Part shown: positions 6,368 to 39,924 of the stretch, in pieces
Layout of the letters: the number at the start of each line of letters is the position of its first letter
Numbering within the stretch: position 1 is the first letter of the stretch
Source: an uncultured Acidobacteriota bacterium
GTDB lineage: Bacteria; Acidobacteriota; Vicinamibacteria; Vicinamibacterales; JAKQTR01
Length of the DNA stretch: 64,000 nucleotides
Reading direction: 5' to 3'
Assembly (NCBI GenBank): GCA_963843385.1
Contig: CAWJJY010000007.1
Location: 566,028-630,027 of the forward strand
Notes under the pieces: generated by a model
The model's database searches: none
What the model was told of the DNA's origin: nothing
The model's input: the letters and a program-made list of their open reading frames with translations, nothing else
Made by a program: the position numbers and the translations under genes

Positions 6368-6528
6368 GTCGACTGAGGAACCGCCCGCCCGGAGCCTGTA
6401 ACCTCTCGCGGGTTTCGTGAATCATAGTTCACGGCCCTGCCTCCACGCGGTGCCCGCCGATACTGCCCCCCTTGGTTCGGTTCCACGACGCCCCCGAGGA
6501 ATCCTGGCCGAGCCCCCCTGAGGTTCAG

Positions 6529-8724
6529 ATGGATACGGTCTCCCGCAGACGCTTCCTCAAGATCTCCACAGCCACCGTTGGTGTAGCGGCCGCGGGCGGA
6601 TCACTGGCGCATCTTTCCGGTCAAGCCAGGAACGGCACGAAGTCGGAGGCCGGACTACGGAAGGTGCCGACCTACTGCGACATGTGCTTCTGGAAGTGCG
6701 GGGCGATTGCCTACGTGCAGGACGGGATGCTGTGGAAGGTCGAAGGCAACCCGGAAGATCCGCTGAGCCGGGGCCGCCTGTGCCCTCGAGGGACCGGCAG
6801 CGTCGGCGCCCACACGGACCCCGATCGCCTCAAGGTCCCGCTCATCCGGCGTCGCGGGAGAGGGCAGGACGAGTGGAGCCAGGTCACCTGGGACGAGGCG
6901 CTCACCTACATCGCCGAGCGGATGCAGAGGATCAAGGCGCAATATGGGCCCGAGTCGGTCGCGCTGTTCTCGCACGGCATCGGCGGCACATTTCTCAAAC
7001 ACACGCTCAAGGCGTTTGGCTCTCCGAACATCGCCGCGCCGTCGTTTGCGCAATGCCGGGGCCCAAGGGACGTCGGGTTCAGTCTGACCTTCGGTGAGGA
7101 AATCGGATCGCCCGAGCGCACCGACATTCGCAACAGCCGCTGCCTGGTGCTCATCGGATCGCACCTCGGCGAAAACATGCACAACACGCAGGTGCAGGAA
7201 TTCGCCGACGCGGTCGGCAGCGGCGCGAGCCTCATCGTTGTCGACCCGAGGTTTTCGGTGGCCGCCAGCAAGGCCAAGTTCTACCTGCCGATCCGGCCGG
7301 GCACGGACCTGGCGCTCGTGCTCGCCTGGATGAACGTGCTGGTGGCCGAGCAGCTCTACGACCGGGAGTACGTCGGAAAGTACGGGTTCGGATTCGAGGC
7401 GTTCGCAGCCGAGATCGCGCCGTACACGCCCGAGTGGGCGTATCCCGAGACGGGCATCGAACCCGCCGTCATTCGCGAAACCGCACGGGAGATGGCCAGG
7501 TATCGCCCGGCGACGCTCGTGCACCCGGGTCGCCATGCGACGTGGTACGGCGACGATGCACAGAGAAGCCGCGCGGTGGCGCTGTTGAACGCGTTGCTCG
7601 GGAGTTGGGGACGCAAGGGCGGGTTCTACCAGCCGCGGAGCATGGATGTGCCCGGCTATCCCTACCCGCCGTACCCGGCATCCCGGCAGGGCAAGGTCGA
7701 CAACCCCGGCGGGAAGCATCCATTCGCCTCGGAGTCGATCACCACGGGCATCCGCGAGGCGACCGTGAGCGGCCGGCCCTATCCGGTGAAGGGCTGGATC
7801 ACCTACGCGACCAACCTCATGATGGCGCTGCCCAACGAGGCGGAGACAATCAAGGCCATCCAGGCGCTCGATCTCCTCGTGGTCGTCGACGTGATCCCAA
7901 GCGAAATGGCGGGTTGGGCGGATGTCGTGCTGCCCGAGGCCACCTTCCTGGAGCGGTACGACGAATTGAACGTCGAGCTGTTCCGGGAGCCGTTCGTCGC
8001 GCTGCGCCAGCCGGTTGTCGACGCCCCCGATGATCAGAAACCGAACTGGTGGATCGCGAAGGAACTCGCCACCAAGCTCGGGCTAGAGGCGTACTTCCCG
8101 TGGAAGCACATCGAGGAGTACCTGGGTGCGCGACTGTCGAAGGCGGGGCTGAGCTTCGCCGATCTGAAGCAGAAGGGAATCATCGCCGGCAAGCCCCAGC
8201 CGATCTATTTCGAGGACGGTGTCCCACCCGAGTTCGGCACTCCCTCGGGCAAGATCGAGTTCTACTCGACCAGCCTGCGCGACCGCGGCTTCGATCCGGT
8301 GCCGAAGTATACGAAACACCCGCAACCTCCGCCGGGATCGTTCCGGCTGCTGTTCGGGCGGGCGCCCGTTCACACGTTCGGCCGGACGCAGTCCAATCCG
8401 ATTCTGCACGACATGATGGCGGAGAACGAGGTGTGGGTGAACGCTGATGCCGCGGCCCGCCTGGGCTTCCGGGACGGAGAACGCGTGCGGCTGAAGAACC
8501 AGGACGGCATCGTGAGCAACCTCGTGCGCATGAAGGCGACCAACCGCATCCGTCCGGATTGCGTGTACATGGTGCACGGCTTCGGACATACGGCGGTGCG
8601 ATTGCGGCGGGCGCTGGGCCGGGGCGCGAGCGACGGCCAGCTCGTCACGCGGTACGCCACCGATCCCCTGATGGGCGGCACGGGCATGAACGTGAACTTC
8701 GTCACGCTGGAAACGGAGGCCTGA
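6529..8724 (+). CDS. Tat-exported molybdopterin (bis-MGD) oxidoreductase catalytic subunit, PsrA/PhsA/TtrA-like
   Basis: A twin-arginine signal (SRRRFLKISTATVGVAAAG) is followed by an N-terminal 4Fe-4S motif (CDMCFWKCG...CPRG). The gene sits directly upstream of 4Fe-4S and NrfD subunit genes. A GAGG lies 5 nt before the ATG at 6529. Confidence 0.85.
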   Translation: MDTVSRRRFLKISTATVGVAAAGGSLAHLSGQARNGTKSEAGLRKVPTYCDMCFWKCGAIAYVQDGMLWKVEGNPEDPLSRGRLCPRGTGSVGAHTDPDRLKVPLIRRRGRGQDEWSQVTWDEALTYIAERMQRIKAQYGPESVALFSHGIGGTFLKHTLKAFGSPNIAAPSFAQCRGPRDVGFSLTFGEEIGSPERTDIRNSRCLVLIGSHLGENMHNTQVQEFADAVGSGASLIVVDPRFSVAASKAKFYLPIRPGTDLALVLAWMNVLVAEQLYDREYVGKYGFGFEAFAAEIAPYTPEWAYPETGIEPAVIRETAREMARYRPATLVHPGRHATWYGDDAQRSRAVALLNALLGSWGRKGGFYQPRSMDVPGYPYPPYPASRQGKVDNPGGKHPFASESITTGIREATVSGRPYPVKGWITYATNLMMALPNEAETIKAIQALDLLVVVDVIPSEMAGWADVVLPEATFLERYDELNVELFREPFVALRQPVVDAPDDQKPNWWIAKELATKLGLEAYFPWKHIEEYLGARLSKAGLSFADLKQKGIIAGKPQPIYFEDGVPPEFGTPSGKIEFYSTSLRDRGFDPVPKYTKHPQPPPGSFRLLFGRAPVHTFGRTQSNPILHDMMAENEVWVNADAAARLGFRDGERVRLKNQDGIVSNLVRMKATNRIRPDCVYMVHGFGHTAVRLRRALGRGASDGQLVTRYATDPLMGGTGMNVNFVTLETEA

Positions 8725-8728: not shown

Positions 8729-9268
8729 ATGGCGCGGTACGGCATGGCGATCGACACCCGCCGGTGCGTCGGGTGCATGGACTGCGTGGTGGCCTGCAAG
8801 ACCGAGAACCGGGTGCCCGAGGGCTTCACCCGGGACTGGATCGCCACCGAGGCCACCGGGCGGTTCCCGACCATCCAGCTGGAGATCCGGAGCGAGCGGT
8901 GCAATCACTGCGACAACCCGCCGTGCGTGGCGTGCTGCCCGACCGGGGCGAGCCACGTCGCATCGCCCGGCCAACTCGTGCTGGTGACGCACGAGGCGTG
9001 CATCGGCTGCAAGGCCTGCCTCGCCTCGTGTCCGTACGGCGCGAGGTTCGTCCATCCCGACGGGTACGCAGACAAGTGCTCATTCTGCGCTCATCGCCTG
9101 GAGGAGGGGCTCGACCCCGCCTGCGTGACCGTGTGTCCGACCAGGTGCATGACATTCGGCGACCTCGACGACCCGAACGCTCCGATCAGCCGGCTGCTGG
9201 CCTCGCGCAAGGCACACGCACTTCAGCCGGCTTCGGGCACCGAGCCGCGCATCTTCTATCTCGTCTAG
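8729..9268 (+). CDS. 4Fe-4S ferredoxin-type electron-transfer subunit (PsrB/NrfC-like)
   Basis: Four Cys clusters are present (CVGCMDCVVAC, CNHCDNPPCVACCP, CIGCKACLASCP, CSFCAHR...CVTVCP). Confidence 0.88.
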   Translation: MARYGMAIDTRRCVGCMDCVVACKTENRVPEGFTRDWIATEATGRFPTIQLEIRSERCNHCDNPPCVACCPTGASHVASPGQLVLVTHEACIGCKACLASCPYGARFVHPDGYADKCSFCAHRLEEGLDPACVTVCPTRCMTFGDLDDPNAPISRLLASRKAHALQPASGTEPRIFYLV

Positions 9269-9275: not shown

Positions 9276-10226
9276 TTGGTGACGCCAGAATTCTTCATCA
9301 CTCGCCACAATCCGCTCGTGGATCCGAGCCTGAGCGTCTGGGGCTGGGAAATCGCCGTCTACCTGTTCCTGGGAGGCTGGGTCGCCGGGATGATGATTCT
9401 TACCGGCTATTTCATACTCGGCGGGCGCCACCAGCGCCCGTCGCCTCTGCTTTCGGCCTTGCCCGGCGTCGGCCTGGTCCTGCTCAGCCTCGGCATGCTG
9501 GCGCTGTTCCTCGACCTCGAGCACAAGAGCAATGTCTGGCGTCTCTATGTGACCTTTCAGCCCAGCTCGCCGATGTCGTGGGGCGCCTGGATCCTCCTGC
9601 TCGTGTACCCGGTGCTCATGCTCAGCTGGATGACGCGGCCGCCAGCGTTGTTGCGGGATGCGAGCCCCCCGGTCGATCATGCGTCGCGATGGCTCCGCGC
9701 CCGCCCGCGGGCGGTCAGCCTGATCGGCGCGACCAGCATCGCACTGGGCGCCGCACTCGGCGTCTACACGGGGGTGCTCCTGAGCGCCCTCGGTGCGCGG
9801 CCGCTCTGGAATAGCGGAGCGTTGGGCATTCTCTTCCTGGCTTCAGGGGTATCAACCGCTGCCGCATTCGCCCACCTGGTGACGCGCAGCCTCGACGAGC
9901 GGGCCCTGACGGTACGCATCGACAACATCGTGCTGGCATCAGAACTTGGGGTGCTCGCGCTGTTCCTGTTCGGGCTGCTCTCGGGTAGTGCCCCGCAGAT
10001 TGATGCAGCGCGATTGCTCCTGGGTGGAGCCTACACGGCGCCGTTCTGGGTCTTCGTCATCGGACTCGGCCTCGTCGTTCCTCTCGTGATCCAGACCCTC
10101 GCCGCACGTCACATCGTGCCGCACACGCCGATCGCCCCGCTGCTGGTCATGGCGGGTGGGCTGGCGCTCCGGTTCGTGTTCGTTTACGCGGGCCAGGCCA
10201 GCCACTGGGCCAGGGGCTTGGGCTAG
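9276..10226 (+). CDS. NrfD/PsrC-family integral-membrane quinol-interacting subunit
   Basis: The protein is hydrophobic with about 8 predicted helices and occupies third position after the Mo and FeS subunits. The start is TTG at 9276 or GTG at 9279. Confidence 0.8.
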   Translation: MVTPEFFITRHNPLVDPSLSVWGWEIAVYLFLGGWVAGMMILTGYFILGGRHQRPSPLLSALPGVGLVLLSLGMLALFLDLEHKSNVWRLYVTFQPSSPMSWGAWILLLVYPVLMLSWMTRPPALLRDASPPVDHASRWLRARPRAVSLIGATSIALGAALGVYTGVLLSALGARPLWNSGALGILFLASGVSTAAAFAHLVTRSLDERALTVRIDNIVLASELGVLALFLFGLLSGSAPQIDAARLLLGGAYTAPFWVFVIGLGLVVPLVIQTLAARHIVPHTPIAPLLVMAGGLALRFVFVYAGQASHWARGLG

Positions 10227-10376: not shown

Positions 10377-10955
10377 ATGACAACAACAACTGCCGAAGGG
10401 CTCGGCGTCCCCGTAGAAGCGGCGGGCGAGCGGGAGACCGCCGCGGCGCAGCCCTACATGAATCCCTACCTGGCCGGCATCGGTCTCGGCCTGACGCTGC
10501 TCGCCGCCTTCGTGCTCGTCGGACGGGGACTTGGCGCATCGGGCGCATTCAACGCCGTGGTCGCCTGGGCAGTGAACTCAGTGGCGCCTGCGCACGCACA
10601 GGGAAACGAGTTCATCGCGGGCTACCTTGGTGACGGCAGCTCGTCGCCGCTCAAGGCCTGGCTGCTCTTCGAGGTCGTGGGTGTCTTCTTCGGCGCGCTC
10701 GTCTCAGGGCTCCTGGCGCGTCGCGTGCAGGTCATGGTGGAAAAAGGCCCGCGCGTTTCGACGGCGCCTCGACTGATCGCCGCCTTCGCCGGCGGTGCGT
10801 TGATGGCCATCGGAGCCGCGCTGGCGCGGGGCTGCACCAGCGGCCAGGCGCTCACCGGCGGCTCGCTCCTCAACCTCGGCAGCTGGGCCGCCATGATGAT
10901 GATCTTCGCCGGGGCTTACGCCGTGGCGTACTTCGTAAGGTGGCAATGGCGATGA
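10377..10955 (+). CDS. YeeE/YedE-family sulfur-compound transport protein (half-size, first of a pair)
   Basis: A hydrophobic protein carrying the conserved ...ARGCTSGQALTGG... motif. Confidence 0.75.
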   Translation: MTTTTAEGLGVPVEAAGERETAAAQPYMNPYLAGIGLGLTLLAAFVLVGRGLGASGAFNAVVAWAVNSVAPAHAQGNEFIAGYLGDGSSSPLKAWLLFEVVGVFFGALVSGLLARRVQVMVEKGPRVSTAPRLIAAFAGGALMAIGAALARGCTSGQALTGGSLLNLGSWAAMMMIFAGAYAVAYFVRWQWR

Positions 10956-11548
10956 TGGCACCATTCCTGAAATTCGGCGCGTTCGGCGACGAGACCAGCC
11001 TGGTGGTCGCGTTCCTCATTGGCATCGGCTTCGGCTTCTTCCTCGAGCGGGCGGGCTTCGGCAGCGCCCGCAAGCTGGTGTCACAGTTCTACCTGAACGA
11101 TCTTGCAGTCTTCAAAGTCATGTTCACCGCGATCGTCACGGCGATGCTGGGCGTGACCTACCTCGCATGGATGGGTTGGCTGGATCTTTCTCTCGTGTAT
11201 CTGACGCCGACATTCCTCTGGCCGCAGATCGTCGGCGGCCTGATCCTCGGTGCGGGATTCGTTGTCGGCGGATATTGTCCCGGAACGTCAGTTGCCGCGA
11301 CGGCGACCGGCAAGGTTGATGCGATGGTCTTCCTCTCGGGCATCCTCGTCGGCTCGCTGCTGTTCGCCGAAGGTTATCCGTGGGTCAAGGGCTTCTACGA
11401 CAGCTCGTCACTCGGAGTCCGCACGCTTCCGCAGACGCTCGGCCTGCCATACGGCGTCGTCGTGTTCGGCGTGGTCCTCATGGCGATCGGCGGATTCTAC
11501 GGGGCGGGGCTGCTCGAACGGAAGTTCGGCGCCCGCACGGGAGCGTAG
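10940..11548 (+). CDS. YeeE/YedE-family sulfur-compound transport protein (half-size, second of a pair)
   Basis: A hydrophobic protein with a GGYCPGTS motif. It overlaps the preceding gene by 16 nt. Confidence 0.75.
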   Translation: MAMAMMAPFLKFGAFGDETSLVVAFLIGIGFGFFLERAGFGSARKLVSQFYLNDLAVFKVMFTAIVTAMLGVTYLAWMGWLDLSLVYLTPTFLWPQIVGGLILGAGFVVGGYCPGTSVAATATGKVDAMVFLSGILVGSLLFAEGYPWVKGFYDSSSLGVRTLPQTLGLPYGVVVFGVVLMAIGGFYGAGLLERKFGARTGA

Positions 11549-11551: not shown

Positions 11552-12205
11552 ATGAGGAACTGGTTGATTCGACTGACGCTGAACCAGAAGCTGGCGGTGC
11601 TCGCGCTGGTCCTGGGCGCGGCCGCAGTGTCGGCGTCGCCCTATCGCGGCGCGCGGGTGACGCTGGACACGAGGGAACTCACCGCCATCGTGCAGAAGGA
11701 CCAGGACCACGTGGCGCCACTCGAACTCGCGTCGTGGATCATCGCGAATCGATCGGATTACAGGCTGGTCGATCTGCGAAGCGACACCGAGTTCGGTGCG
11801 TACCACATCCCTGGCGCCGAGAACATACCGATCGCGCACCTGACCGATGCCCAGTTGGGCCGGCTGGAGACGATCATTCTCTGTTCGGAGGGCGGAGAGC
11901 ACTCAGCCCAAGGCTGGATGCTCCTCAAGGCGATGGGCTATCGGGGCGTGTACGTGCTGCGCGGCGGAATGGAAGGCTGGAGAAACGAAGTGCTCTGGCC
12001 GGTGCTCGCAGTCGACACATCATCCGGCGACGCCGCCAGAATCGAACGCCTGAAGTCGATCAGCGCCTTCTTCGGCGGAACGCCGCGGGCCTCCGGCGAT
12101 GCGCGAGCCACAGAACCTGCAGCTTCTTTGCCGAAGGTCGAGGCGCCGGCCTCGGTTCCAGGTCCGGCCAAGGCCGCGGTCAGGAAGAAGAAGGAAGGGT
12201 GCTAG
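11552..12205 (+). CDS. membrane-anchored/exported rhodanese-domain protein with a Pro/Ala-rich tail ending in ...KKKEGC
   Basis: An N-terminal hydrophobic segment (LAVLALVLGAAAVSA) precedes a rhodanese core (DLRSDTEFGAYHIPGAENIP...ILCSEGGEHSAQGWMLLKAMGYRGVYVLRGGMEGW). Confidence 0.75.
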   Translation: MRNWLIRLTLNQKLAVLALVLGAAAVSASPYRGARVTLDTRELTAIVQKDQDHVAPLELASWIIANRSDYRLVDLRSDTEFGAYHIPGAENIPIAHLTDAQLGRLETIILCSEGGEHSAQGWMLLKAMGYRGVYVLRGGMEGWRNEVLWPVLAVDTSSGDAARIERLKSISAFFGGTPRASGDARATEPAASLPKVEAPASVPGPAKAAVRKKKEGC

Positions 12206-12216: not shown

Positions 12217-14994
12217 TCAGTTCCAGATCGGCGAAACGCACCTTGGACTTCGGCGGGACAGGACCGCCTCGAAACCCAGCACCGAGTCTCTCATCACGCG
12301 AGACGAGGCGGCGTGACAGGTCAGGCATGCGCCCACCCGCAGGATGCGACGTTGCTCCTCCGCCGTGAATGGCCGGACATCCTCTCGAGTCGAGACCATG
12401 CCGTCGCGCGTCTGAAGGAACGGAATCCAGGCGTCGGCGGGCAGGCGGTCTTCGGGCAGAGGCGGCGCCGCCGGCTTGAATATCCAGCGCCCGCCGGCCG
12501 GAGTCCGGTCGTACCGTAGTTCTCCGCGACCGTACCCCAGCGCCACCGGGTCGTTGTGGCACGACTCACAGGATCGCGCCTCGCGCCGGGTCGTGTGAGG
12601 CTCGATGCGCGCGTACAGCCTCCGGAACACCGCGTCGGACGGATATCCGGGTTCGCGGCTGCGGTCGATGGTGAGGATCATGCCGGGCACGAATGTCTCG
12701 ATGACGTCTCGAGATGCGCCGGACTTCATCAGGACGCGGCGAACGCCGAGTGTGGGCAGGTCGGAGGAAAACGAACCGGACTTCTCTTCCCAGGCCCCTC
12801 GAACGTCGATCCCCGCGACCCAATCGTAGGCCTCCGCGGCCGCGTCGAATGCGGTATGGCAGGTCGGGCAACGAGGTGCCCACGTCGTATGGCAGCTGCC
12901 ACACGACAGCCTCAGGTGCCCTCCGCCCTCGACGCACACGCGGGCGGCAGGCTTGAGTTCCCTCCGCCCGCCAGTCCTCTTCCGTACCAGGCGCGGTGCG
13001 CCAGTCTCGTCGATGACGAGGTTGACCAGCACCTCGCCGTTCGCCATTCGCACGTAGCGGCTGAATGAGGGCCCCGGCCATCCGCGCAGCGCAAGGATGC
13101 GCCTGGACTCTGGATCGAGACCTGCAGCGGAAACGACGGGCAAGGTGGTTCCCGGTCGCGCGTGGCAGTCCTCGCAGGTCACCCGGACCTGATCGCTCTT
13201 GCGTCCATGCGCGATGCCGTCTCCCATTACTTCGATCGCCGTGTGACAGTCGATGCAGTCGAGCCCGCGCTGCTGGTGCACATCGGGCATGACGCGCTCG
13301 AACACCCGGTCATCCTCGAGCCTGCGGAATCGGGAAGGCGCTACGGTGGAGCGCCCGGCCGCTTCCGTGGGCGGTTCGTTCAACTCGTGCCACCCTTCGA
13401 AGTTGGTCGAGATGCGGCCGGACCGGCTGTGGCAGCCGAAGCACTGTGTATTGCCGATATCGAGGGAGAGCGCCGGATGCACGACCGGGGCGTCGGCGGC
13501 GCCGCGCGCCTTCTGAGCCTGGTACCGGCGCAATGCGTCCAGCGCGGCAGGACTGTAGGCGAGATGACACGCCGTGCACCCTCCGCCCCGCGCGCTCTCG
13601 TCGTTCGGGCCGAGCGCGGTCTTGGCCGTTCCGAGGTGACACGACGCGCACAATTGACGCAGGTGGGTATCGGCGGCCGATTGCCCGATGCTCTGCACGT
13701 GCGATGCACCGCTTCCAGTCGTTCCCCCGTTCTCACCAAAGACGATCCGATCGACGCTCACGATTCCGCTCATCGTGGCCATGACGGAGCCTTGGACGCG
13801 CGGGACGATTGGCTCGTGGCAGACCGACTGGCCGCAGCGGCGAGTTGCGGTGGCCAGGTTGCCCGCGATGACATCCATGCCTGCATGGGCCCGGTCCTTG
13901 TCGATCGTGAACACGTCGCCGCCATGGCATGCCGCACAGCCGACGGCCTCAGGCCGGTGGGCATTACCCAGGCCGGTCACCGCGCGGTGGCAGATCAGGC
14001 ACCCTTCGGGCCGACCCATGACGACCGGAAGCGGCACCGGAAGTGCCGGCGGAGCATTGGAAGTCGCATGCAGCAGCCATCCCGCGCGCAGGTTGCCAGC
14101 CCCGGTCGGCCAACCCGGCTGCCACGCCCAGTTTTCGCCGCGCAGGAACCCTCCGACGCCGCACATTCCGAGATACCCGACGGTCAGCACCAGCAGGAGC
14201 GCTTTCGTCCACGCCGCACGTGGACCGGGGAAAACTCGGACGGCGTAGAGCGCGCCGGCGATAGCCGCACCCGCTGCAACGACGATCAGCGGCCGTGTCG
14301 CCCAGTGCAGCATCTCCTGGAGACCGAGGAAGTACCAGGGGCCCTTGACGATGGGATCGAGCCCGTCGTGCAATCCCGGCGACAGGAACAGCGAGAGCCC
14401 GCTTGTGAGGAGGGTGATCGCGACAAACGCCTCCCGACGAGGCCACACGCGGCGCGAATGCTCGATGATGAACAGCCACGCGACAATGGTCGCGGTGGCC
14501 GCGTGCTGCACGTAGATCAGGTCGAGGTGCTCGCCTGCGCCAAACACCATCGTGGCGGCAAGCGGCCCGATGATCGGCACCTGTGAGGTGGCGCCGGCCA
14601 GTATCCGAAGCGCCTGTCGGCCCTCCGGATCGCCGCGCAGCATGAACCCGGAGAGCATGATGAAGACGAGCACCGGCAGCGTCAGCGTAAGCCGCAACCA
14701 CATGCCCTTGCCGACGCGATGCTCGGTTCGTGCGCGCAGGTGATCCCAGAGGTGGAGCAACGTCAGCACCAGGCAAAGCTGGCCCGCCCAGTAGTGCGCG
14801 TTGCGAAAAAACGCCGCGGCCGGGTTCGCAAGCATGACCGCGGCGATGGATCCGTAACTGTCCTTCACGTCGTAGGGGACGGCCACGAGCACGCCAGTTA
14901 CGGCCGCGATGACGAAGGCGGCGACGGCGAAGTCGCCGAACGAGCCCCAACGGAAGGTGAGGATGGCGGAGGGCTCGCGGGCGTCAGGTCGCAC
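12217..14994 (-). CDS. cytochrome b (b6 + subunit-IV-like, about 7 TM helices) fused to a large periplasmic multihaem cytochrome c domain (11 CxxCH plus 1 CxxxxCH)
   Basis: The N-terminal part carries FRNAHYWAGQLCLVLTLLHLW (H-x13-H), HAATATIVAWLFIIEH (H-x14-H) and a PEWY-equivalent KGPWYFLGLQEML. Downstream haem motifs are CLICH, CAACH, CGQSVCH, CASCH, CTACH, CFGCH, CIDCH, CEDCH, CGSCH, CPTCH, CESCH and CLTCH. The ORF-track start at 15192 overlaps the Rieske gene. I place the start at the GTG at 14994, which overlaps the Rieske stop by 11 nt. Confidence 0.85.
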   Translation of the reverse strand: MRPDAREPSAILTFRWGSFGDFAVAAFVIAAVTGVLVAVPYDVKDSYGSIAAVMLANPAAAFFRNAHYWAGQLCLVLTLLHLWDHLRARTEHRVGKGMWLRLTLTLPVLVFIMLSGFMLRGDPEGRQALRILAGATSQVPIIGPLAATMVFGAGEHLDLIYVQHAATATIVAWLFIIEHSRRVWPRREAFVAITLLTSGLSLFLSPGLHDGLDPIVKGPWYFLGLQEMLHWATRPLIVVAAGAAIAGALYAVRVFPGPRAAWTKALLLVLTVGYLGMCGVGGFLRGENWAWQPGWPTGAGNLRAGWLLHATSNAPPALPVPLPVVMGRPEGCLICHRAVTGLGNAHRPEAVGCAACHGGDVFTIDKDRAHAGMDVIAGNLATATRRCGQSVCHEPIVPRVQGSVMATMSGIVSVDRIVFGENGGTTGSGASHVQSIGQSAADTHLRQLCASCHLGTAKTALGPNDESARGGGCTACHLAYSPAALDALRRYQAQKARGAADAPVVHPALSLDIGNTQCFGCHSRSGRISTNFEGWHELNEPPTEAAGRSTVAPSRFRRLEDDRVFERVMPDVHQQRGLDCIDCHTAIEVMGDGIAHGRKSDQVRVTCEDCHARPGTTLPVVSAAGLDPESRRILALRGWPGPSFSRYVRMANGEVLVNLVIDETGAPRLVRKRTGGRRELKPAARVCVEGGGHLRLSCGSCHTTWAPRCPTCHTAFDAAAEAYDWVAGIDVRGAWEEKSGSFSSDLPTLGVRRVLMKSGASRDVIETFVPGMILTIDRSREPGYPSDAVFRRLYARIEPHTTRREARSCESCHNDPVALGYGRGELRYDRTPAGGRWIFKPAAPPLPEDRLPADAWIPFLQTRDGMVSTREDVRPFTAEEQRRILRVGACLTCHAASSRVMRDSVLGFEAVLSRRSPRCVSPIWN

Positions 14995-15436
14995 GGGCGG
15001 TCCACCCACCGGAGGCCGGGTCCGGATCGATCCGGAGCGGCACGAGCGGCCGTCTCGCGGGACCTGCCGATACCGTGCCGTCCGCACGGAAGTGCGATCC
15101 GTGGCACGGACAGACGGCCTCGTTCTCGATGATGCGGTCGATGCGACATCCCAGGTGCGTGCAGGACGCGGAGAATGCACGGAGGGTGCCACCGGAGTCT
15201 CGATGGACGATGGCCGAGTCGACCACCGACAGGCCGCCGGGCACGTCGGGCGGGATGCTGATCGAGGCTGGGACGCGCGTGGCCTCTACACCTCGCACCA
15301 TTGCATAGAGTGAGCCCAGAAACGGAAGGCTCAACGCGGTCGCGAGCAAGCGTTTCAGCACCGTGCGGCGTGTGCGGTGGTCGCTGCGCGGAGAACCGAC
15401 GGTGGGTGCGTGGCGCTGGTTCTCTTCGACCATCAT
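14984..15436 (-). CDS. Tat-exported Rieske [2Fe-2S] protein
   Basis: A twin-arginine motif (HRTRRTVLKRLLATALSL) and the Rieske boxes CTHLGC and CPCHGSHF are present. The gene lies immediately upstream of the cytochrome b fusion gene. Confidence 0.9.
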   Translation of the reverse strand: MMVEENQRHAPTVGSPRSDHRTRRTVLKRLLATALSLPFLGSLYAMVRGVEATRVPASISIPPDVPGGLSVVDSAIVHRDSGGTLRAFSASCTHLGCRIDRIIENEAVCPCHGSHFRADGTVSAGPARRPLVPLRIDPDPASGGWTARAT

Positions 15437-15651: not shown

Positions 15652-16164
15652 GTGACCCAATACGAGACAATGACGCGGGAAGAACTGCTCGACGCCTTGA
15701 AAGCTTTCGCCAAGAACTGGCTCGCCCACGATGGATGCTGGTTCCTGGCGGCGGAAGAGCGCCTGGGTCTCGAGACGGCCATCGAGCTCGACGCTGCCGC
15801 CTGGAAGCGGTTTGCCGTGGCGGAGGCGCGACGGATCATCGATCTGTTCGGTGTCGGCCAAGGCGGGGGACTGCAGGCGCTGCGGCGCGCGCTGTCCCTG
15901 CGGATGTACGCCTTGCTCAACGACCAGCGCCTCGAATGGTCGGACGGTACCCAGACGTTACGCCTCGTGATGGACGGGTGCCGCGTGCAAGAGACGAGGC
16001 GCCGCAAAGGCCTCCCGGAGTTTCCCTGCCGGCCGGTGGGAGACGTGGAATTTGCCTCGTTCGCCACCACGATCGATTCCCGGATCGTGACGCGCTGCGT
16101 CCACTGCCCCCCGGACGCCAATGCGGGCGGCGCGTGCACGTGGGAATTCACGCTCGGACTCTAG
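15652..16164 (+). CDS. conserved-looking hypothetical protein (Cys-rich C-terminus); possibly DUF6125/ATC-hydrolase-like
   Basis: Codon usage looks coding. The sequence includes WLAHDGCWFL...CRVQE...CRPVG...CVHCPPD...C. The family assignment is from memory only. Confidence 0.45.
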   Translation: MTQYETMTREELLDALKAFAKNWLAHDGCWFLAAEERLGLETAIELDAAAWKRFAVAEARRIIDLFGVGQGGGLQALRRALSLRMYALLNDQRLEWSDGTQTLRLVMDGCRVQETRRRKGLPEFPCRPVGDVEFASFATTIDSRIVTRCVHCPPDANAGGACTWEFTLGL

Positions 16165-16326
16165 TGTCCCGAGTCAGAAGTTCGCCGACATATTCCGGGC
16201 GGGGCATCCCGCCTCGCTCAGATTGCTTCTCCCTCGCATATTCCCGATAGTCTCGGTCGTCGCGCCTTGCGATCCGGGCGCCGCGCTCCGGACTATTTGT
16301 CACCGAACTTCTGACTCGGGACACTA
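16162..16326. mobile_element. MITE-like non-autonomous element: perfect 21-bp terminal inverted repeats, TA target-site duplication, CTAG target (IS630/Tc1-mariner style)
   Basis: The left TIR GTGTCCCGAGTCAGAAGTTCG (16164-16184) is the exact reverse complement of the right TIR at 16304-16324. A TA flanks each end (16162-3 and 16325-6). Removing the element plus one TA leaves ...GGACTCTAGACGAC..., which contains a CTAG. The internal 119 bp has no credible ORF. Confidence 0.6.
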
Positions 16327-17721
16327 GACGACTCGGCGGGGAAGCATCGCGGGGTGTGACGGGGAGGTCCGTCGCGCCCACACCAGCATCAGCGTCAGGC
16401 CGACGATGGTCAGGCTCGTCGCGAGCCCGGCCCAGAGCCCCTGGACTCCCCACCCCCACCAGAAGCAGGCCGCGTAGCCGAGCGGCAGGCCGATCGCCCA
16501 ATGGCCGGCGAGATTGGCCACCATCGGGATCCTCGTCTCTCCGATGCCGCGCAGGATGCCGGTGGAAATCGTCTGCGTGCCGTCGAAGATCAGGCAGACG
16601 CCGGCGATCGTCAACAGCGACGGGCCGATCGCCAGCACGGCTGCATCGCGTGAAAAGGCGGACACCAGCGTCCGGCCGGCTGTGAGAAAGACCATCGCGG
16701 CCATTCCTGTCGAGGCCGCGCCCAGCGCGAGCGCCGTCCAGCCTGCCCGGCGGATTCCCCCGGGGTCGAGTCGTCCGACGGCGTGGCCGACGCGAACGGC
16801 TCCAGCAGCATTGAGGCCGAGCGGAACCATGAACACGACCGACCACAGGTTGAGCGCGATCTGATGTGCCGCCAGGGCCGCCGGGGCGATTCGGCTCACC
16901 AGCGCCGTGGCCACCGCGAAGACGCCGACCTCGAAGGTCAGCTGAAATGACGCGGGAATGCCCAATCCGAGCATCCTCCGAATTCCTGCCCAATCCACCT
17001 GCCTCGGCGTGCCGGACAGGCCGGTGTCCCGTCGCCGTTCCCGCATCCTGATGGCGAGCCCGAGCACCACCACGAGGTAGACACGCGAGAGCACGGTCGC
17101 CCACCCGGTTCCGATGCCTCCGAGCGTCGGAAGGCCGAAGCGGCCGTGGACCAGGCTCCACCCTACGGCGGCATTCACGAGGTTGGCGGACAGCAACGCA
17201 ATGGTGATCGGGCGGACCACGTTCATCGCCTGGAGGTACCGGCGGAACACCGTGTAGACGAGCAGCGGGGGCACGCTCAGCGAGATCGTGCGCAGGTAGG
17301 GCACGACCAGCGCCGCGACGTCCGGCGCCAGGTTCCATGACGCCATCGACCTGGACACCGCGAAGAGCATCGCCATCAGCGGCAGGCTGGCCAGCAGGCT
17401 GAGGTAGATGCCCTGATGGAGCCAGTGGTGGCACCGATCGAGGCGCCCGGCGCCGAAGGCCTGTGCCACCAGGGTGTCGAGCCCGAGCAGCAGGCCCATG
17501 CCGAAGATGGCGAACGCCAGGAACACGATGCTGCCGAGGCCGACCGCGCCGATGGCGGCCGGACCCAGGGGACCCACGATCAGCGTGTCGACCAGACCCA
17601 TCATGCTCCAGCCGATTTCGGCGAGCACGACCGGGACGGCCAGCGTGACCATGGGGCGCAGTTCCGCTCTCAGCGCGGCGTACACCGTTCCATCTTGTCG
17701 TACGGTCTCTCGTGGTGTCAC
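16324..17721 (-). CDS. MATE-family multidrug/toxin efflux transporter
   Basis: The C-terminal 466 codons of ORF 16324..18936 are hydrophobic. They carry a typical MATE N-terminus (LRAELRPMVTLAVPVVLAEIGWSMMGLVDTLIVG) and about 12 TM helices. A GTG at 17721 is chosen as start. Upstream of this point the ORF is antisense to the UbiA gene. Confidence 0.8.
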   Translation of the reverse strand: MTPRETVRQDGTVYAALRAELRPMVTLAVPVVLAEIGWSMMGLVDTLIVGPLGPAAIGAVGLGSIVFLAFAIFGMGLLLGLDTLVAQAFGAGRLDRCHHWLHQGIYLSLLASLPLMAMLFAVSRSMASWNLAPDVAALVVPYLRTISLSVPPLLVYTVFRRYLQAMNVVRPITIALLSANLVNAAVGWSLVHGRFGLPTLGGIGTGWATVLSRVYLVVVLGLAIRMRERRRDTGLSGTPRQVDWAGIRRMLGLGIPASFQLTFEVGVFAVATALVSRIAPAALAAHQIALNLWSVVFMVPLGLNAAGAVRVGHAVGRLDPGGIRRAGWTALALGAASTGMAAMVFLTAGRTLVSAFSRDAAVLAIGPSLLTIAGVCLIFDGTQTISTGILRGIGETRIPMVANLAGHWAIGLPLGYAACFWWGWGVQGLWAGLATSLTIVGLTLMLVWARRTSPSHPAMLPRRVV

Positions 17722-17862
17722 GGGAACGCGTTCCCGCCTGGCGGGGACGCGGACGCGCGGCCCGGCCGCGCCGCGATTGAGGCGCCACGTGCCTGTCGCG
17801 GTAGAATGGCCCGGGCCCGCTCGAGGGCCGGCCGCGGCGTGCGTGTCATCGGGAGGTCCTTC

Positions 17863-18762
17863 GTGTCGAAATTGCCCGCGTATCTCGGCGTGATTCGCGC
17901 CCCGTTTCTGCTGTTGCCCGTCACGCTGGTCGCCTCCGGAGCAGCCGCCGCCGCGTATGACGACCACGTCGTGGCATCGCGGGCACTCCTCGCGCTGGTG
18001 GGCCTGTTGGCGCTTCACGCCTCGGTCAACGCGCTCAACGAATCGAGCGACATGCGCACCGGCATCGACGAGCACACCGTGCGCACGCCGTTCAGCGGCG
18101 GCAGCGGCACGCTGCCCTCGGGTGCGCTCTCGACACGCGCCGCGACGATGACCGGGCTCGCCGGTGCCGCGATCGGCCTTGGCATCGGGCTCTGGCTTCT
18201 GCCCCGCATCGGATGGCCCCTCGTGCCGGTCATGGCGATCGGCGGGCTGGGCGTGCTGGCGTACACCGATGTTCTCGCCCGTATCGGGCTTGGAGAATTC
18301 TTCGCCGGGCTTGGACTCGGCGCGCTTCCCGTGGTCGGCACGGCGCTGGTGCAGCGGGGCCATGTCGGGCCCGCCGCGTGGACTGCTGCCGCGCCCGCCT
18401 TCTTCATGACGTTCAATCTGCTGCTCCTGAACGAGTTTCCCGATCAGGAAGCGGATCGCGCCGGCGGGCGCCGGAATCTCGTGCTGATCTTCGGCCGGCG
18501 CGGGGCGGCCGTGATCTATGCGCTTGCGGCGATCGCCACGCCGGGATCGATCATCGCGGCGGTGGTCATCGGCGCGCTTCCGCCGCTCGCGCTGATCGCC
18601 GTGCTGCCCTTCCAGTTCTGTTTTCCGGCGGTCCGCTGGGCCTTCACCAAGCCTTACGAGCCCGTGCCGATTCCGAGCCTCGCCGGCAACGTGAGTTGGA
18701 ACCTGGCGACCAACACCACGCTCGCCCTCACGCTGGCGGTCGCCACGTGGCTGAAACTGTGA
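17863..18762 (+). CDS. UbiA-superfamily prenyltransferase, MenA (DHNA polyprenyltransferase)-like
   Basis: Asp-rich motifs NALNESSDMRTGID and NEFPDQEADRAGGRRNL sit in a polytopic membrane protein. The GTG at 17863 is preceded by GGGAGG with a 6-nt spacer. Confidence 0.75.
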   Translation: MSKLPAYLGVIRAPFLLLPVTLVASGAAAAAYDDHVVASRALLALVGLLALHASVNALNESSDMRTGIDEHTVRTPFSGGSGTLPSGALSTRAATMTGLAGAAIGLGIGLWLLPRIGWPLVPVMAIGGLGVLAYTDVLARIGLGEFFAGLGLGALPVVGTALVQRGHVGPAAWTAAAPAFFMTFNLLLLNEFPDQEADRAGGRRNLVLIFGRRGAAVIYALAAIATPGSIIAAVVIGALPPLALIAVLPFQFCFPAVRWAFTKPYEPVPIPSLAGNVSWNLATNTTLALTLAVATWLKL

Positions 18763-18783
18763 CGCCCCGCATGTCGAGGTGGC

Positions 18784-18969
18784 ATGAACGCTGACGATCC
18801 GAAGGCCAACACCAACCTCTACTTCCCTTACAAGGGCACGCGGAGTGCCTCCGCATCTGACGCGACGGCATCCGGGAAGATCCGGCTGACCCATCGCCTC
18901 GGGCAGAACCTCGACGTGTTTGCCAGCGTGGGCCACACCGAGCGCGTGCCGGATCCGCAGGACCGATAG
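18784..18969 (+). pseudogene. possible remnant of a TonB-dependent outer-membrane receptor (C-terminal fragment)
   Basis: The 61-aa ORF ...NLDVFASVGHTERVPDPQDR* is followed in frame after the stop by FALKRSGSDW. This resembles the ER.PD..E.YF... region of TBDRs. No N-terminal part is present. Confidence 0.25.
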
Positions 18970-22173: not shown

Positions 22174-25100
22174 GTGTTCGCTCGCCTTTGCCCACAGCCG
22201 CTGTCAGCGTGTTGGCCGTCGTGCTGGCGTTTGCTGGCGCTTCAGAACCCCGCCGCCGGTGTTTCATCGAACATTGTGATCAGCGAGTTCCGCGTGCGAG
22301 GCCCTGTTGGGGGCAACGACGAGTTCGTTGAGCTGTACAACCTGTCGTCGTCTCCGGTAGACATCAGCGGCTGGAAGATCAAGGGATCGAACAACGCTGC
22401 CGGCACGAGCGTTCGCCTGACCGTCCAGGCAGGGACGGTGCTCAATCCCGGATGCCACTTCCTGGCCACCAATTCGAATATCGGCGGACCTTACAGCGGG
22501 AGTGTCCCTGGGGACCAGAGATACGGCACGGGAATCACCGATGACGGCGGTATCGTGCTGACCCGAGGCGATGATTCAGTGGTCGACCAGGTCGGCATGA
22601 GCTCCGGGTCAGCGTTCAAAGAGGGGACGCCGTTGACCAGCCTCGGCAGCTTGAACCTGGACCGCGAATACGAACGAATGCCGGGCTCACTCGCCGGCAA
22701 CGGTACAGACACCGACAACAACGCCGGTGATTTCTTGCTCGTCTCACCGAGCAACCCCCAGAACCTGTCCTCAGCGTGCATCGCAGATACCGGTCCGACA
22801 CCGCCAACCGGCGTAGGTGCGGCATCGCCGGCGTCGTTGGTCGCTGGAGAACAGGCCACGCTCGTCGTGACGGTGACGCCGGGCGCGAATCCGATCAGCT
22901 CGGGGATCGCCGTTGCAGCCGACCTGGGCGCGATCGGTGGATCCTCCACACAGTCGTTCTTCGACGATGGATCCAACGGCGACGTGACGGCTGGAGATAA
23001 CGTGTGTTCCTTCAACGCCACGGTCTCCCCTGGCACATCAGTGGGCGCCAAGTCGCTGCCGTTCGTCGTCAGCGATGTCCAGGTGCGATCGAGCCCAGGG
23101 TCGATCATCCTGATGGTCGTCCCTCCCCCCATGCCGATTCACTCCATCCAGGGAGCAGGCAGCACCTCCCCCTTCGTCGGGCAACTCGTGACCACGCATG
23201 GGATCGTCACCGCCAGGCGATTCAACAACGGCTTCTTCATCCAGACGCCGGATGCGTTGGTCGACGGCGACCCGAACACATCCGAAGGGATCTTCGTGTT
23301 CACGAGCAGTGTGCCGCCGGCCATGGCGTCGGTCGGCGCCTACGTCCAGGTGACCGGCACGGCAGCAGAGTTCGTACCCGACGCAAACGGTCCATCGACC
23401 ACCGAGATCGCGTCGCCGATCGTCTCGGCGCTGTGCTCCACGTATCCGATGCAATTGGCGGTGACGCTGACGGCGGCTGACCTTCCGGCCGACGGGACGC
23501 TCGACCAGCTCGAGCGGATCGAAGGCATGCGCGTGCTGGTGCCGTCGCTGCGAACCGTGAGCCCGACACAGGGGTCGGTCAACGAACCTAACGCGACGAG
23601 CACGTCCAACGGCGTCTTCTATGCGGTCATCGACGGCGTCGCGCGACCCTTTCGGGAGCCCGGCATCCAGGTGGGCGATCCGCTTCCGCCCGGCGCGCCG
23701 CCGACGGTCCCTCGATTCGACTTCAACCCGGAGCGTCTGCGCGTCGACAGCGACGGACAGATTGGAGCGACGCGGATCGAGGCGACCTCCGGGGCGCTGT
23801 TGACTGATGTGACTGGCGTTCTCGACTACGGAGCGCGGACCTGGACGATTCTGCCCGACGTCGCGGCGCCGCCCGTGGTTTCAGGGCTAATCGATGCCAC
23901 GCCGGTGCCGGTGCCCGACACCAATGAGTTCACCGTCGCCTCGTTCAACCTCGAGCGTTTCTACGACACGGTTAACGACCCGGGCGTCAGCGACGTAGCG
24001 CTCACGCCTGCCGCGTTCGCGAACAGGTTGAACAAGGCATCGCTCGCTATCCGGGGCGTCATGCTTTCACCCGACATCCTCGGCGTCGAGGAGGTCGAGA
24101 ACCTCACGACCCTGCAGGCATTGGCGACGAAGCTCAACACCGACACCGTTGCGGCGGGCGACCCGGATCCCGGCTACATCGCTCACCTGCACGAAGGTAA
24201 CGATATCGGCGGAATCGACGTCGGGATCCTGGTCAAGACTTCGCGAGTCGGGGTCGTTGGCGTCACGCACGAAGGGAAGGACACGACATTCATCGAACCC
24301 GGCGGCGCTCAGGCGATCCTCAACGACCGGCCTCCGCTGGTGCTTGAGGCGCTTGTGCACGGGCCGACCGGATTGCTGCCGGTTACGGTGATCGTGAACC
24401 ACCTCCGTTCGCTTGGTGCCATCGACGACCCGGTCGACGGCCCCCGCGTGCGGGCGAAGCGGTTGGCGCAGGCCGAGTTCCTGGCGACTCTGATCCAGGT
24501 GCGGCAGGCTGCGCACCCGGCCGAGCGCATCATCTCGGTAGGTGACTACAACGCCTTCCAGGTCAACGACGGTTACGTCGACGTGATTAGCAGCGTCAAG
24601 GGGACGCCGGCACCCGCCGACCAGGTCGTCCTTGCGGGCGCGGATCTCGTGAACCCGGACCTGACCGACCTGGTGGACCTCGTGCCTGCCAGCGAGCGCT
24701 ACTCGTACTCATTTGACGGCTCGGCGCAGGTGCTGGACCACATCATTGTGAACAGCGCCGCGCTCAAGCGCCTGAGCCAGATCCACTTCGCACGGTCCAA
24801 CTCGGACTTCCCGGAGTCCTATCGATCGGATGCGACGCGGCCCGAACGGCTGTCCGACCACGACATGCCGGTGGCGTACTTCTCGTCGGCGCCGATTCTC
24901 CACCTGCTCGGCCTCAATCCGATGACCGTCGAACTGGGCGCCGACTTCACGGATCCGGGCGCGACAGCGTTCGACGACGATCTGGGCGACATCTCATCGT
25001 CGATTATCGTGACGGGAACCGTTGGTACCCACACCATCGGGAGCTACACGCTCACCTACAGCGTGAGCAACGGCTACACGACGACGACCGTCACCAGGAC

Positions 25101-25461
25101 CGTCAACGTGGTGGATACGACGTCGCCCGTCATCGCGGCGGTCTCGCCGAACCCGTCGATCCTGTGGCCCCCGAACCACCAGTTCACCAGGGTTGGCCTG
25201 GCCTACTCGGTTACCGACAACAGCGGCGTGGCCGTCTGCTCGGCGGCGGTATTGAGCAATGAGCCGATCGACGGAACTGGCGACGGCGACACCTCGCCGG
25301 ACTGGCTGGTGTTCGACGGCACCACCCTTCAATTGCGAGCGGAGCGGGCCGGGGGAGGGTCCGGCCGCAGCTACACCATCACCGTGACGTGTCGAGACGC
25401 GTCGGGCAACGCCGCGACACAGAGCGCGGCAGTGAATGTGCCGAAGAGCAAGGGCAAATAG
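22174..25461 (+). CDS. ExeM/NucH-type extracellular nuclease: lamin-tail domain + endonuclease/exonuclease/phosphatase domain + C-terminal Ig-like (DUF5011/HYR-like) domains
   Basis: The LTD shows IVISEFRVRG...NDEFVELYNLS..PVDISGWKI. The EEP domain shows FTVASFNLERFYD, DHIIVN and SDHDMPVAYF. The C-terminal part includes ...FTDPGATAFDD..GDIS..I.VTGTV. The true N-terminus probably starts at the GTG at 22143 in another frame (see findings). Confidence 0.85.
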   Translation: MFARLCPQPLSACWPSCWRLLALQNPAAGVSSNIVISEFRVRGPVGGNDEFVELYNLSSSPVDISGWKIKGSNNAAGTSVRLTVQAGTVLNPGCHFLATNSNIGGPYSGSVPGDQRYGTGITDDGGIVLTRGDDSVVDQVGMSSGSAFKEGTPLTSLGSLNLDREYERMPGSLAGNGTDTDNNAGDFLLVSPSNPQNLSSACIADTGPTPPTGVGAASPASLVAGEQATLVVTVTPGANPISSGIAVAADLGAIGGSSTQSFFDDGSNGDVTAGDNVCSFNATVSPGTSVGAKSLPFVVSDVQVRSSPGSIILMVVPPPMPIHSIQGAGSTSPFVGQLVTTHGIVTARRFNNGFFIQTPDALVDGDPNTSEGIFVFTSSVPPAMASVGAYVQVTGTAAEFVPDANGPSTTEIASPIVSALCSTYPMQLAVTLTAADLPADGTLDQLERIEGMRVLVPSLRTVSPTQGSVNEPNATSTSNGVFYAVIDGVARPFREPGIQVGDPLPPGAPPTVPRFDFNPERLRVDSDGQIGATRIEATSGALLTDVTGVLDYGARTWTILPDVAAPPVVSGLIDATPVPVPDTNEFTVASFNLERFYDTVNDPGVSDVALTPAAFANRLNKASLAIRGVMLSPDILGVEEVENLTTLQALATKLNTDTVAAGDPDPGYIAHLHEGNDIGGIDVGILVKTSRVGVVGVTHEGKDTTFIEPGGAQAILNDRPPLVLEALVHGPTGLLPVTVIVNHLRSLGAIDDPVDGPRVRAKRLAQAEFLATLIQVRQAAHPAERIISVGDYNAFQVNDGYVDVISSVKGTPAPADQVVLAGADLVNPDLTDLVDLVPASERYSYSFDGSAQVLDHIIVNSAALKRLSQIHFARSNSDFPESYRSDATRPERLSDHDMPVAYFSSAPILHLLGLNPMTVELGADFTDPGATAFDDDLGDISSSIIVTGTVGTHTIGSYTLTYSVSNGYTTTTVTRTVNVVDTTSPVIAAVSPNPSILWPPNHQFTRVGLAYSVTDNSGVAVCSAAVLSNEPIDGTGDGDTSPDWLVFDGTTLQLRAERAGGGSGRSYTITVTCRDASGNAATQSAAVNVPKSKGK

Positions 25462-25472
25462 GCGAAGAAAGA

Positions 25473-25517
25473 GGACGGGCGAGTTGTCCGCGGGTCACGT
25501 GGGCAACTCGCCCGTCC
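25473..25517 (+). terminator. strong stem-loop just downstream of the nuclease gene (14-bp perfect stem, 17-nt loop)
   Basis: GGACGGGCGAGTTG (25473-25486) pairs with CAACTCGCCCGTCC (25504-25517). No U-tract follows, so classification as an intrinsic terminator is tentative. Confidence 0.45.
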
Positions 25518-37207: not shown

Positions 37208-37230
37208 GTGCTGATCCTCGTGCTCGCCGG

Positions 37231-38427: not shown

Positions 38428-38468
38428 AGACGGTCGTGCTCCCCTTGGTCAGATGGCGTCGAGAACGT

Positions 38469-39884: not shown

Positions 39885-39924
39885 GTGATGACTCCTGAGA
39901 AACGGGGTATCGGGGGCCTTCTTT

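Follow-up and report, generated by a model that had tools for sequence, protein, structure and literature searches.

What kind of respiratory complex is encoded by a gene that joins a complete cytochrome b to a large multihaem cytochrome c, and is such a gene real, new and connected with the sulfur genes adjoining it? The question is raised by a contig of an uncultured Acidobacteriota bacterium, of which a 64-kb stretch was analysed (64,000 nucleotides (nt), here called the window; all coordinates follow its numbering). Two genes on the minus strand are at issue: a Rieske [2Fe-2S] gene encoding 150 amino acids (aa) at 14984..15436 and, overlapping its end, a gene at 12217..14994, whose product has a cytochrome b at the N-terminus followed by a domain with 12 c-type haem motifs (residues are numbered in this 925-aa protein). 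Our analysis shows that this fusion gene belongs to a family that is widespread, has been noticed earlier and is uncharacterised, and that it is not a singular architecture. We consider it reasonably probable that the pair encodes a menaquinol-oxidising Rieske/cytochrome b complex of the GPWY lineage, with a tethered 12-haem output and a role in periplasmic sulfur or selenium redox chemistry.

A cytochrome b and twelve haem motifs in one reading frame

The longest reading of the fusion open reading frame (ORF) spans 12217..15192 and would yield 991 aa. A first interpretation made from the DNA sequence alone (the sequence-only reading) had described an ORF of 926-991 aa; the long ORF stands, but its length is corrected to 925 aa, counted from a GTG codon at 14994. 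This GTG is taken as the real start because four observations agree: it is preceded by a Shine-Dalgarno-like GGTGGGTGGA; it overlaps the Rieske gene by 11 nt (14984..14994, minus strand, with the Rieske TGA at 14986-14984 and the GTG at 14994-14992); it gives the length of a public-database protein that is 100% identical to the fusion (P0001, 925 aa); and it coincides with the N-termini of the homologues. The same 11-nt overlap is called in three related loci (L001, L002 and L003; Rieske end 10011, fusion start 10001). The overlap, already recognised in the sequence-only reading, and the Shine-Dalgarno-like GGTGGGTGGA suggest translational coupling of the two genes. The apoprotein has a mass of 99.9 kDa, or about 108 kDa with two haems b and 12 haems c.

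A long composite ORF might arise by an assembly or annotation error that merges separate cytochrome b and multihaem genes. Split forms do occur, since there are stand-alone ExtM-like proteins of about 600 aa, and three related loci (L021, L029 and L054) hold the C-terminal ORF only, with one ORF covering just the C-terminal ~640-710 aa; these are either natural splits or assembly errors. However, the window ORF runs from its b part into its c part without a stop, as had been stated from the sequence alone, and without a frameshift, and the junction is in frame in P0001 and in all 385 full-length homologues aligned (33-100% identity), which come from independent assemblies and several phyla and include isolate genomes. 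A frameshift or annotation artefact is therefore rejected. The GC content at third codon positions of the fusion gene (0.80) is similar to that of the adjacent genes, and codon-position GC is even along the whole gene, through the b and the c parts, which also argues against a merger. The artefact is in effect already refuted, and we assign it a negligible probability. The antisense and alternative-frame ORFs lying within the fusion gene are artefacts of the high GC content, as their atypical codon-position GC shows. A scan for promoters and terminators found nothing exceeding background. To judge by its sequences, the fusion is real and under selection.

Profile searches match the Rieske, Cytochrome_B and ExtM models, and the predicted structure contains a cytochrome b fold. 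The N-terminal third of the fusion comprises a cytochrome b6-like four-helix part (aa 1-185; 14440..14994, minus strand), recognised by Pfam Cytochrome_B and its conserved histidines, and a subunit-IV-like three-helix part (aa 186-290; 14125..14439, minus strand), recognised by Foldseek and HMMER; over its N-terminal 320 residues the fusion matches cytochrome b in both sequence and fold. Pfam Cytochrome_B (PF00033) scores 30.1 bits against a cut-off of 27.2, and a family profile matches cytochrome b6 (1vf5_A) at 1.8e-10 along with many bc1 cytochromes b. In the AlphaFold model (mean pLDDT, the predicted local distance difference test, 67.5 for the fusion and mostly 75-89 for the membrane part) all seven membrane helices are seen, matching the earlier count of about seven; hydropathy yields six strongly hydrophobic segments within aa 16-285, the haem-bearing helix B being under the threshold. 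Foldseek places about 320 columns of the model on whole bc1 cytochrome b, with E-values down to 4e-7 and a TM-score (target) of 0.53-0.56. Helix B reads R64..H67-x13-H81 and helix D reads H164-x14-H179. The four histidines expected to ligate haems bL and bH, H67/H81 and H164/H179, are conserved at 0.99 or more in the 385 homologues, which confirms the pairs first noted from the sequence alone.

The Qo-type motif KGPWYF (aa 217-222; 14329-14346, minus strand) lies within the subunit-IV-like part, in the loop before helix F. HMMER lines PWYFLGLQEILHW up with plant (P)EWYFLPIYAILRS, i.e. GPWY (aa 218-221) falls on (P)EWY, in agreement with the equivalence proposed from the sequence alone. Among 83 related-locus ORFs scanned, 71 had a detectable Qo-type motif, which was KGPWYF in 68, and GPWY is a catalogued Qo variant (Kao & Hunte 2014, PMC4122944). 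The NCBIfam ExtP model matches the first four helices (E = 1.4e-13, 51.1 bits against a cut-off of 290), and the best NCBIfam match of the subunit-IV-like part is memb_ExtQ, a weak one (E = 0.043, 14.1 bits against 150). The CxGG motif of haem cn is not present in the fusion, and the b6f type containing this haem is ruled out by the residues SFGD at the equivalent position. With two histidine pairs, fold homology, a Qo variant and a Rieske partner, the protein has the features of bc1/b6f cytochromes b. Going by the charge distribution of the loops and the standard topology of cytochrome b, the N-terminus would be cytoplasmic and helix 7 would end in the periplasm. Helix 7 would thus deliver the haem domain to the compartment where c-type haems are attached, through a linker of low pLDDT and poor conservation that runs from the last membrane helix to the first haem motif (aa 291-325; 14020..14124, minus strand).

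The remainder of the protein is an ExtM-type 12-haem domain (aa 326-925; 12220..14019, minus strand). It carries 11 CxxCH motifs and one CGQSVCH, a Cx4CH motif found by the motif scan (aa 387-393; 13816-13836, minus strand), in about 600 aa, while only 0.03 CxxCH would be expected from composition alone. The motifs had been counted correctly from the sequence: every cysteine and histidine of all twelve is at 1.00 in the 385 homologues, and exactly 11 CxxCH and one Cx4CH are found in 80 of 83 related genomic loci. NCBIfam cytoc3_ExtM covers the domain over 572 of 599 profile positions (E = 1.7e-63), scoring 214.9 bits against a cut-off of 800. Because the scores lie far under the equivalog cut-offs, ExtM (NF040943), ExtP (NF040969) and ExtQ (NF040970) are regarded as homologues of the respective parts and not as orthologues or equivalogs.

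Outside the motifs, seven histidines (346, 370, 444, 506, 573, 693 and 800), three methionines (405, 590 and 772) and two cysteines (687 and 919) are invariant in the 385 homologues, i.e. exactly twelve candidate distal ligands for 12 haems. A mixed haem chain is likely on this ground, with seven bis-His haems, three His/Met haems and two haems perhaps involving the invariant cysteines. C687 and C919 could form a disulfide or ligate haem; their uneven retention in stand-alone ExtM-like proteins (24/47 and 40/47, respectively) speaks against an obligatory disulfide between them. Haem ligation by His and Cys, as in TsdA, SoxAX, DsrJ and MccSep, is typical of cytochromes that act on sulfur compounds. 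A beta-rich subdomain at about aa 705-845 is confidently modelled by AlphaFold. A sequence profile search of PDB with the haem part returned motif-level matches to NrfA only. The Pfam domain Mtrc-MtrF_II-IV reaches 22 bits against a cut-off of 30; an outer-membrane cytochrome of the MtrC/OmcA type is rejected because of this score and because an inner-membrane protein carries the domain.

The partner protein matches Pfam Rieske (PF00355) with E = 6.5e-12 and the NCBIfam b6f/bc1 Rieske models at about 1e-12, under their cut-offs. Its boxes, CTHLGC and CPCHGSHF, are of the S-F type. With the leader/anchor RRTVLKRLL, which contains a twin-arginine, it is predicted to be exported by the twin-arginine translocation (Tat) pathway and anchored in the membrane. 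A same-strand Rieske ORF accompanies the fusion in 61 related loci, with S-F boxes in 45 and S-Y boxes in 16. Neighbouring genes were counted by tblastn of the window neighbours against 84 related loci, 45 of which have at least 6 kb on both sides (well-flanked loci); a Rieske gene is detectable in 37 of these 45.

Distribution of the family and its known relatives

Three protein searches (E <= 1e-5, counted as 90%-identity clusters) returned 402, 1137 and 2045 clusters, and the 120 best matches of each are essentially all 880-990 aa long. A genomic scan covering one genome per GTDB species identified 366 loci that encode a fusion relative; the best 80 of them, from which the taxonomy was taken, are essentially all near-full-length fusions. 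The sequence-only reading, which called for a survey of relatives, had held the fusion to be unusual and had itself named a common family of fused b::multihaem genes as the observation that would speak against this. With 366 species-representative loci, and with hundreds to thousands of clusters per search, the family is common, and the claim of novelty fails for this reason.

Carriers among the best 80 loci belong to Acidobacteriota (Vicinamibacterales, Geothrix), Verrucomicrobiota (Opitutales, Lacunisphaera), Bacteroidota (Bacteroidales, Prolixibacteraceae, Lentimicrobiaceae), Ignavibacteriota/Chlorobiota and Calditrichaceae, and include metagenome-assembled genomes (MAGs) labelled Betaproteobacteria or Burkholderiales. 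Isolates carrying the gene are Draconibacterium aestuarii, Maribellus comscasis, Maribellus mangrovi, Mangrovibacterium diazotrophicum and Mangrovibacterium lignilyticum. The window fusion is closest to proteins of Acidobacteriota MAGs (75-77% identity), the nearest species representative being an Acidobacteriota MAG at 75% (L027). Database names of the family are generic: "cytochrome b N-terminal domain-containing protein", "DUF4405 domain-containing protein" or "hypothetical protein". A library clustered at 50% identity contains about 30 full-length fusion representatives and many stand-alone, signal-anchored proteins of about 600 aa that share the 12 motifs; fused and unfused forms coexist in nature.

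The closest comparison is provided by Geobacter sulfurreducens, where ExtM (GSU2935) is a 12-haem cytochrome encoded in the ext cluster together with the Rieske protein ExtO, the cytochrome b ExtP, the small membrane protein ExtQ, a 10-haem cytochrome and a rhodanese (PMC5877670; PMC2825233); this unfused "bc complex" cluster with the 12-haem GSU2935 was reported in 2010 (PMC2825233). The Geobacter complex, Cbc6/ExtMNOPQ (GSU2935-GSU2932 and GSU3620, within extHIJKLMNOPQS), shares with the window a Rieske protein, a b6-type cytochrome b, a subunit-IV-like protein and a 12-haem cytochrome c. However, four separate genes in the order M-N-O-P-Q encode in Geobacter what is one polypeptide in the order P-Q-M in the window, and the 10-haem ExtN has no counterpart there. 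Both systems have genes for a rhodanese and a sulfur-compound reductase in their vicinity, but the reductase is the haem/selenocysteine protein MccSep in Geobacter and a molybdoenzyme in the window. The MccSep gene, located directly upstream of extM, encodes a periplasmic polysulfide reductase that is essential for sulfur respiration (bioRxiv 10.1101/2025.11.18.688581), and loss of the porin-like ExtI, encoded in the same ext cluster, impairs the reduction of selenite and tellurite (PMC5877670).

The family also resembles the GPWY clade defined by Kao & Hunte 2014 (PMC4122944), who described an Ignavibacterium album cytochrome b fused to a triheme c7 domain. The likeness extends to the GPWY Qo motif, the predicted mid-to-high potential Rieske type, the C-terminal c-type domain and the presence of Ignavibacteria among the carriers, and Pfam Cytochrome_C7 is matched by all 37 family members scanned. 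While the I. album partner, compared here by its description, is a trihaem c7, the members of the present family have 12 motifs in about 600 aa. The I. album reference protein was not found by name among the matches listed. The fusion is also a candidate for "subfamily H" of Dibrova et al., a cytochrome b group made up of large proteins with cytochrome b domains.

Other complexes share single aspects of this architecture. In cytochromes b with a fused class I c domain, the c domain is likewise attached after the last subunit-IV-like helix, on the periplasmic side, but it has one or two haems in about 100 aa and the b part carries PEWY or PDWY, whereas in the window protein a b part with GPWY is followed by an unrelated domain of about 600 aa that holds 12 haems. 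In the Rieske/b complexes of anammox bacteria (Kustd1480-85, Kuste4569-74), hexa- or octahaem cytochromes c similarly replace c1/f as acceptors of the Rieske protein; their multihaem subunits are, however, separate proteins, and they have an NAD(P) oxidoreductase subunit and the haem-cn motif, both lacking in the window complex. CbcL, in which a dihaem b ("type I b-type dihaem quinone oxidoreductase domain") is fused to a nine-haem c, likewise combines a quinol-interacting b membrane domain and a periplasmic multihaem domain in one polypeptide. The b domain of CbcL is of the HydC/FdnI type, without a Rieske partner or a Qo loop, whereas in the window a b domain of the bc1/b6f type is partnered by a Rieske protein. 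A CbcL-type b domain is rejected for the window fusion, which has no match to PF01292 (Ni_hydr_CYTB) and has both the Rieske partner and the Qo loop. As far as our limited literature search shows, the strict 12-haem count, the ExtM homology of the fused domain and the recurrent adjacency to Psr, YeeE and rhodanese genes have not been reported before.

Sulfur genes around the fusion

In the window, the Rieske/fusion pair converges with a six-gene operon on the plus strand. Its first gene (6472..8724, likely starting at M20, nt 6529) encodes a Psr/Phs-family molybdopterin catalytic subunit with the Tat leader SRRRFLK, which matches Pfam Molybdopterin, Molydop_binding and Molybdop_Fe4S4; its best NCBIfam match is PhsA (E = 5.7e-151, 504 bits, under the cut-off of 694). 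It is followed, all on the plus strand, by genes for a PsrB-like four-cluster ferredoxin (8729-9268; Pfam Fer4_11, E = 1.5e-22), an NrfD/PsrC-like quinone-interacting membrane subunit (9276-10226; Pfam NrfD, E = 2.2e-41), a YeeE/YedE (TsuA-like) sulfur/thiosulfate transporter split into two half-genes (10377-10955 and 10940-11548) and a signal-anchored single-domain rhodanese (11552..12205; Pfam Rhodanese, E = 8.6e-17). The two half-genes match complementary halves of the Pfam Sulf_transp profile (E = 4.6e-20 and 2.1e-14), and their matches to NCBIfam TsuA are weak. The rhodanese begins with a signal/anchor, and its C-terminus reads ...KKKEGC. The stop codons of the rhodanese and fusion genes are 11 nt apart, which leaves no room for an intergenic terminator.

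The whole Psr/YeeE/rhodanese set adjoins the fusion in 23-24 of the 84 related loci. Among the 45 well-flanked loci, a PsrA-family gene is present in 22, one or more rhodaneses in 20, and PsrABC with both YeeE halves in 16; these 16 belong to three or four phylum-level groups and show four gene orders. The convergent order is found in Acidobacteriota (the window, L001, L021 and L027). In Opitutales/Lacunisphaera (L026, L030, L031, L033 and L048) the order is psrA-psrB-nrfD-yeeE-yeeE-rhodanese-rieske-fusion, contiguous on one strand and apparently a single eight-gene operon. The sulfur set is located downstream on the same strand in L035, and it is divergent in Bacteroidota. Linkage that is kept despite rearrangement across three or four phylum-level groups argues for a functional connection, and the supply of electrons to neighbouring sulfur enzymes, one of the roles that the sequence-only reading had considered, gains support from this conserved synteny.

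The Draconibacterium locus also has DsrE-, DsrC- and SQR/FCSD-like genes. Other recurring neighbours are Crp/Fnr regulators, MobA, extra rhodaneses, a Cytochrome_cB multihaem protein and Porin_O_P-type porins. In one Acidobacteriota MAG (L001:5745-9515, GCA_026393755.1), which also has the convergent Psr cassette, the Rieske gene is immediately preceded on its own strand by a second molybdoenzyme set, consisting of a 739-aa molybdopterin subunit, a 243-aa ferredoxin and a 273-aa b561-type cytochrome b; a similar, 50%-identical PsrA-type gene is found in L005, L018 and L020. A DUF6125 gene of 170 aa (15652-16164, plus strand; Pfam E = 6.9e-62), divergent from the window Rieske gene, is shared only with L027.

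Elsewhere in the window, a cluster on the minus strand (36206-47498) encodes a 927-aa molybdenum protein of the xanthine dehydrogenase type, to which a 2Fe-2S domain is fused, a 4Fe-4S protein, an amidohydrolase, two pyridoxal-phosphate-dependent enzymes and a carbamoyltransferase, and looks like a nitrogen-heterocycle or amino-acid catabolic locus. The plus-strand region 22174-29263 encodes two proteins of more than 1000 aa with surface-type domains (lamin-tail, endonuclease/exonuclease/phosphatase and immunoglobulin-like; fn3, PD40, TIG and BACON). Two ORFs overlap on opposite strands: one of 870 aa (16324-18936, minus strand), whose C-terminal half is a multi-helix membrane region, and a membrane-like one of 448 aa (17416-18762, plus strand).

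Possible roles of the complex

In the role that we favour, (mena)quinol would be oxidised at a Qo site to which the Rieske head and the ef loop both contribute, a mechanism assumed from the superfamily. One electron would pass to the Rieske [2Fe-2S] cluster and then to the covalently tethered 12-haem chain, and the other would cross the membrane through bL and bH; owing to this crossing, turnover could build a proton-motive force. The next step is less certain, being drawn from the gene neighbourhood: the haem domain would pass electrons to, or exchange them with, periplasmic inorganic sulfur or selenium chemistry run with the Psr/Phs-type molybdoenzyme, the YeeE-type transporter and the periplasmic rhodanese. 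The sulfur/selenium role is favoured mainly because two unrelated sulfur reductases, MccSep in Geobacter and the molybdoenzyme here, each with a rhodanese, adjoin the same Rieske/b and ExtM module.

Several observations weigh against this interpretation. Neither a Psr gene nor a rhodanese gene is found beside the fusion in 20 of the 45 well-flanked loci, so that the sulfur link is frequent but not obligatory. The Psr-like enzyme has its own NrfD quinone site, and a bc complex is therefore not obviously needed by it. The S-F and S-Y boxes, which Kao & Hunte 2014 (PMC4122944) associate with mid-to-high potential clusters, a class that they report for the GPWY clade, fit badly with direct reduction of low-potential polysulfide or thiosulfate; such boxes disfavour this reaction and favour a reasonably oxidising acceptor, for instance tetrathionate, selenite, nitrogen oxides, Fe(III) or, through oxidases, oxygen. 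A Psr-like enzyme that feeds the quinone pool and a fused complex that drains it may be compatible with this potential class. On the structural side, the subunit-IV-like part does not match Pfam Cytochrom_B_C, the model of the haem domain is of moderate quality (pLDDT 65), and Foldseek found no solved structure in PDB that matches this domain (best E = 1.1). Finally, no member of the fused Rieske/b::12-haem family has been characterised biochemically, and a 2026 review still lists the role of Geobacter Cbc6 as unknown.

The Rieske boxes would also suit aerobic-type chains, where the pair would serve as a general-purpose complex III, that is, a quinol:cytochrome c oxidoreductase feeding oxidases or nitrogen-oxide reductases. 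The sulfur neighbours would then be donors or coincidental; in one variant, the complex takes quinol from a sulfur-oxidising Psr-like enzyme and the 12 haems are a mere wire or buffer. A quinone-reducing enzyme beside a quinol-oxidising one would indeed complete a chain, the three invariant methionines could give high-potential His/Met haems, and the loci without sulfur neighbours are readily accommodated. However, 12 haems and a domain of about 600 aa, part of it beta-rich and conserved, far exceed what is needed to reach an oxidase, and the genes that recur beside the pair in the related loci are those for Psr/Phs, YeeE and rhodanese, while genes for oxidases or nitrogen-oxide reductases do not recur there. 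We regard this explanation, its variant included, as unlikely.

Extracellular electron transfer was among the roles that the sequence-only reading had proposed for the many haems tethered to a quinol-oxidising b domain, an architecture that parallels CbcL. In this role the complex, like CbcL, ImcH and CbcBA of Geobacter, would be the entry from the quinol pool to periplasmic and outer-membrane cytochromes and finally to insoluble Fe(III), Mn(IV) or electrodes. The proposal is in line with the occurrence of the family in Geothrix and Melioribacter-type lineages and with the Geobacter homologue ExtM, whose cluster also encodes a porin-like protein and whose abundance is higher with Fe(III) (PMC5877670). 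It keeps some support from a minority of loci, as 10 of 84 have a Cytochrome_cB multihaem gene close to the pair and 6 of 84 a Porin_O_P gene, but this minority is small and no porin-cytochrome genes flank the pair in the window. In addition, most carriers are not known as metal reducers, and Fe(III) reduction by Geobacter is explained by ImcH, CbcL and CbcBA alone. Extracellular transfer is, in our opinion, a rather improbable function of the complex.

A bolder version of the sulfur/selenium role makes the fusion itself the terminal enzyme, in which one or two haems, ligated by C687 and C919, would directly catalyse tetrathionate, thiosulfate, polysulfide or selenite chemistry. We consider this doubtful. 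If true, the fusion together with the Psr/Phs-like enzyme, YeeE and rhodanese would constitute a widespread, unrecognised module of chalcogen respiration spanning Acidobacteriota, Bacteroidota, Verrucomicrobiota and Ignavibacteriota, and would provide a function for Geobacter Cbc6/ExtM.

In summary, Rieske/cytochrome b complexes are among the best-understood energy converters, but the fused branch, which occurs in hundreds of bacterial species from soil, sediment and wastewater, is biochemically unstudied. The fusion and its Rieske partner are an attractive single-polypeptide target for haem staining, purification and cryo-electron microscopy, and genetics is feasible since Draconibacterium, Maribellus and Mangrovibacterium are culturable. 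The adjacency of Psr/Phs, YeeE and rhodanese genes offers a concrete hypothesis on the role of the complex, which by homology extends to Cbc6/ExtM of Geobacter.

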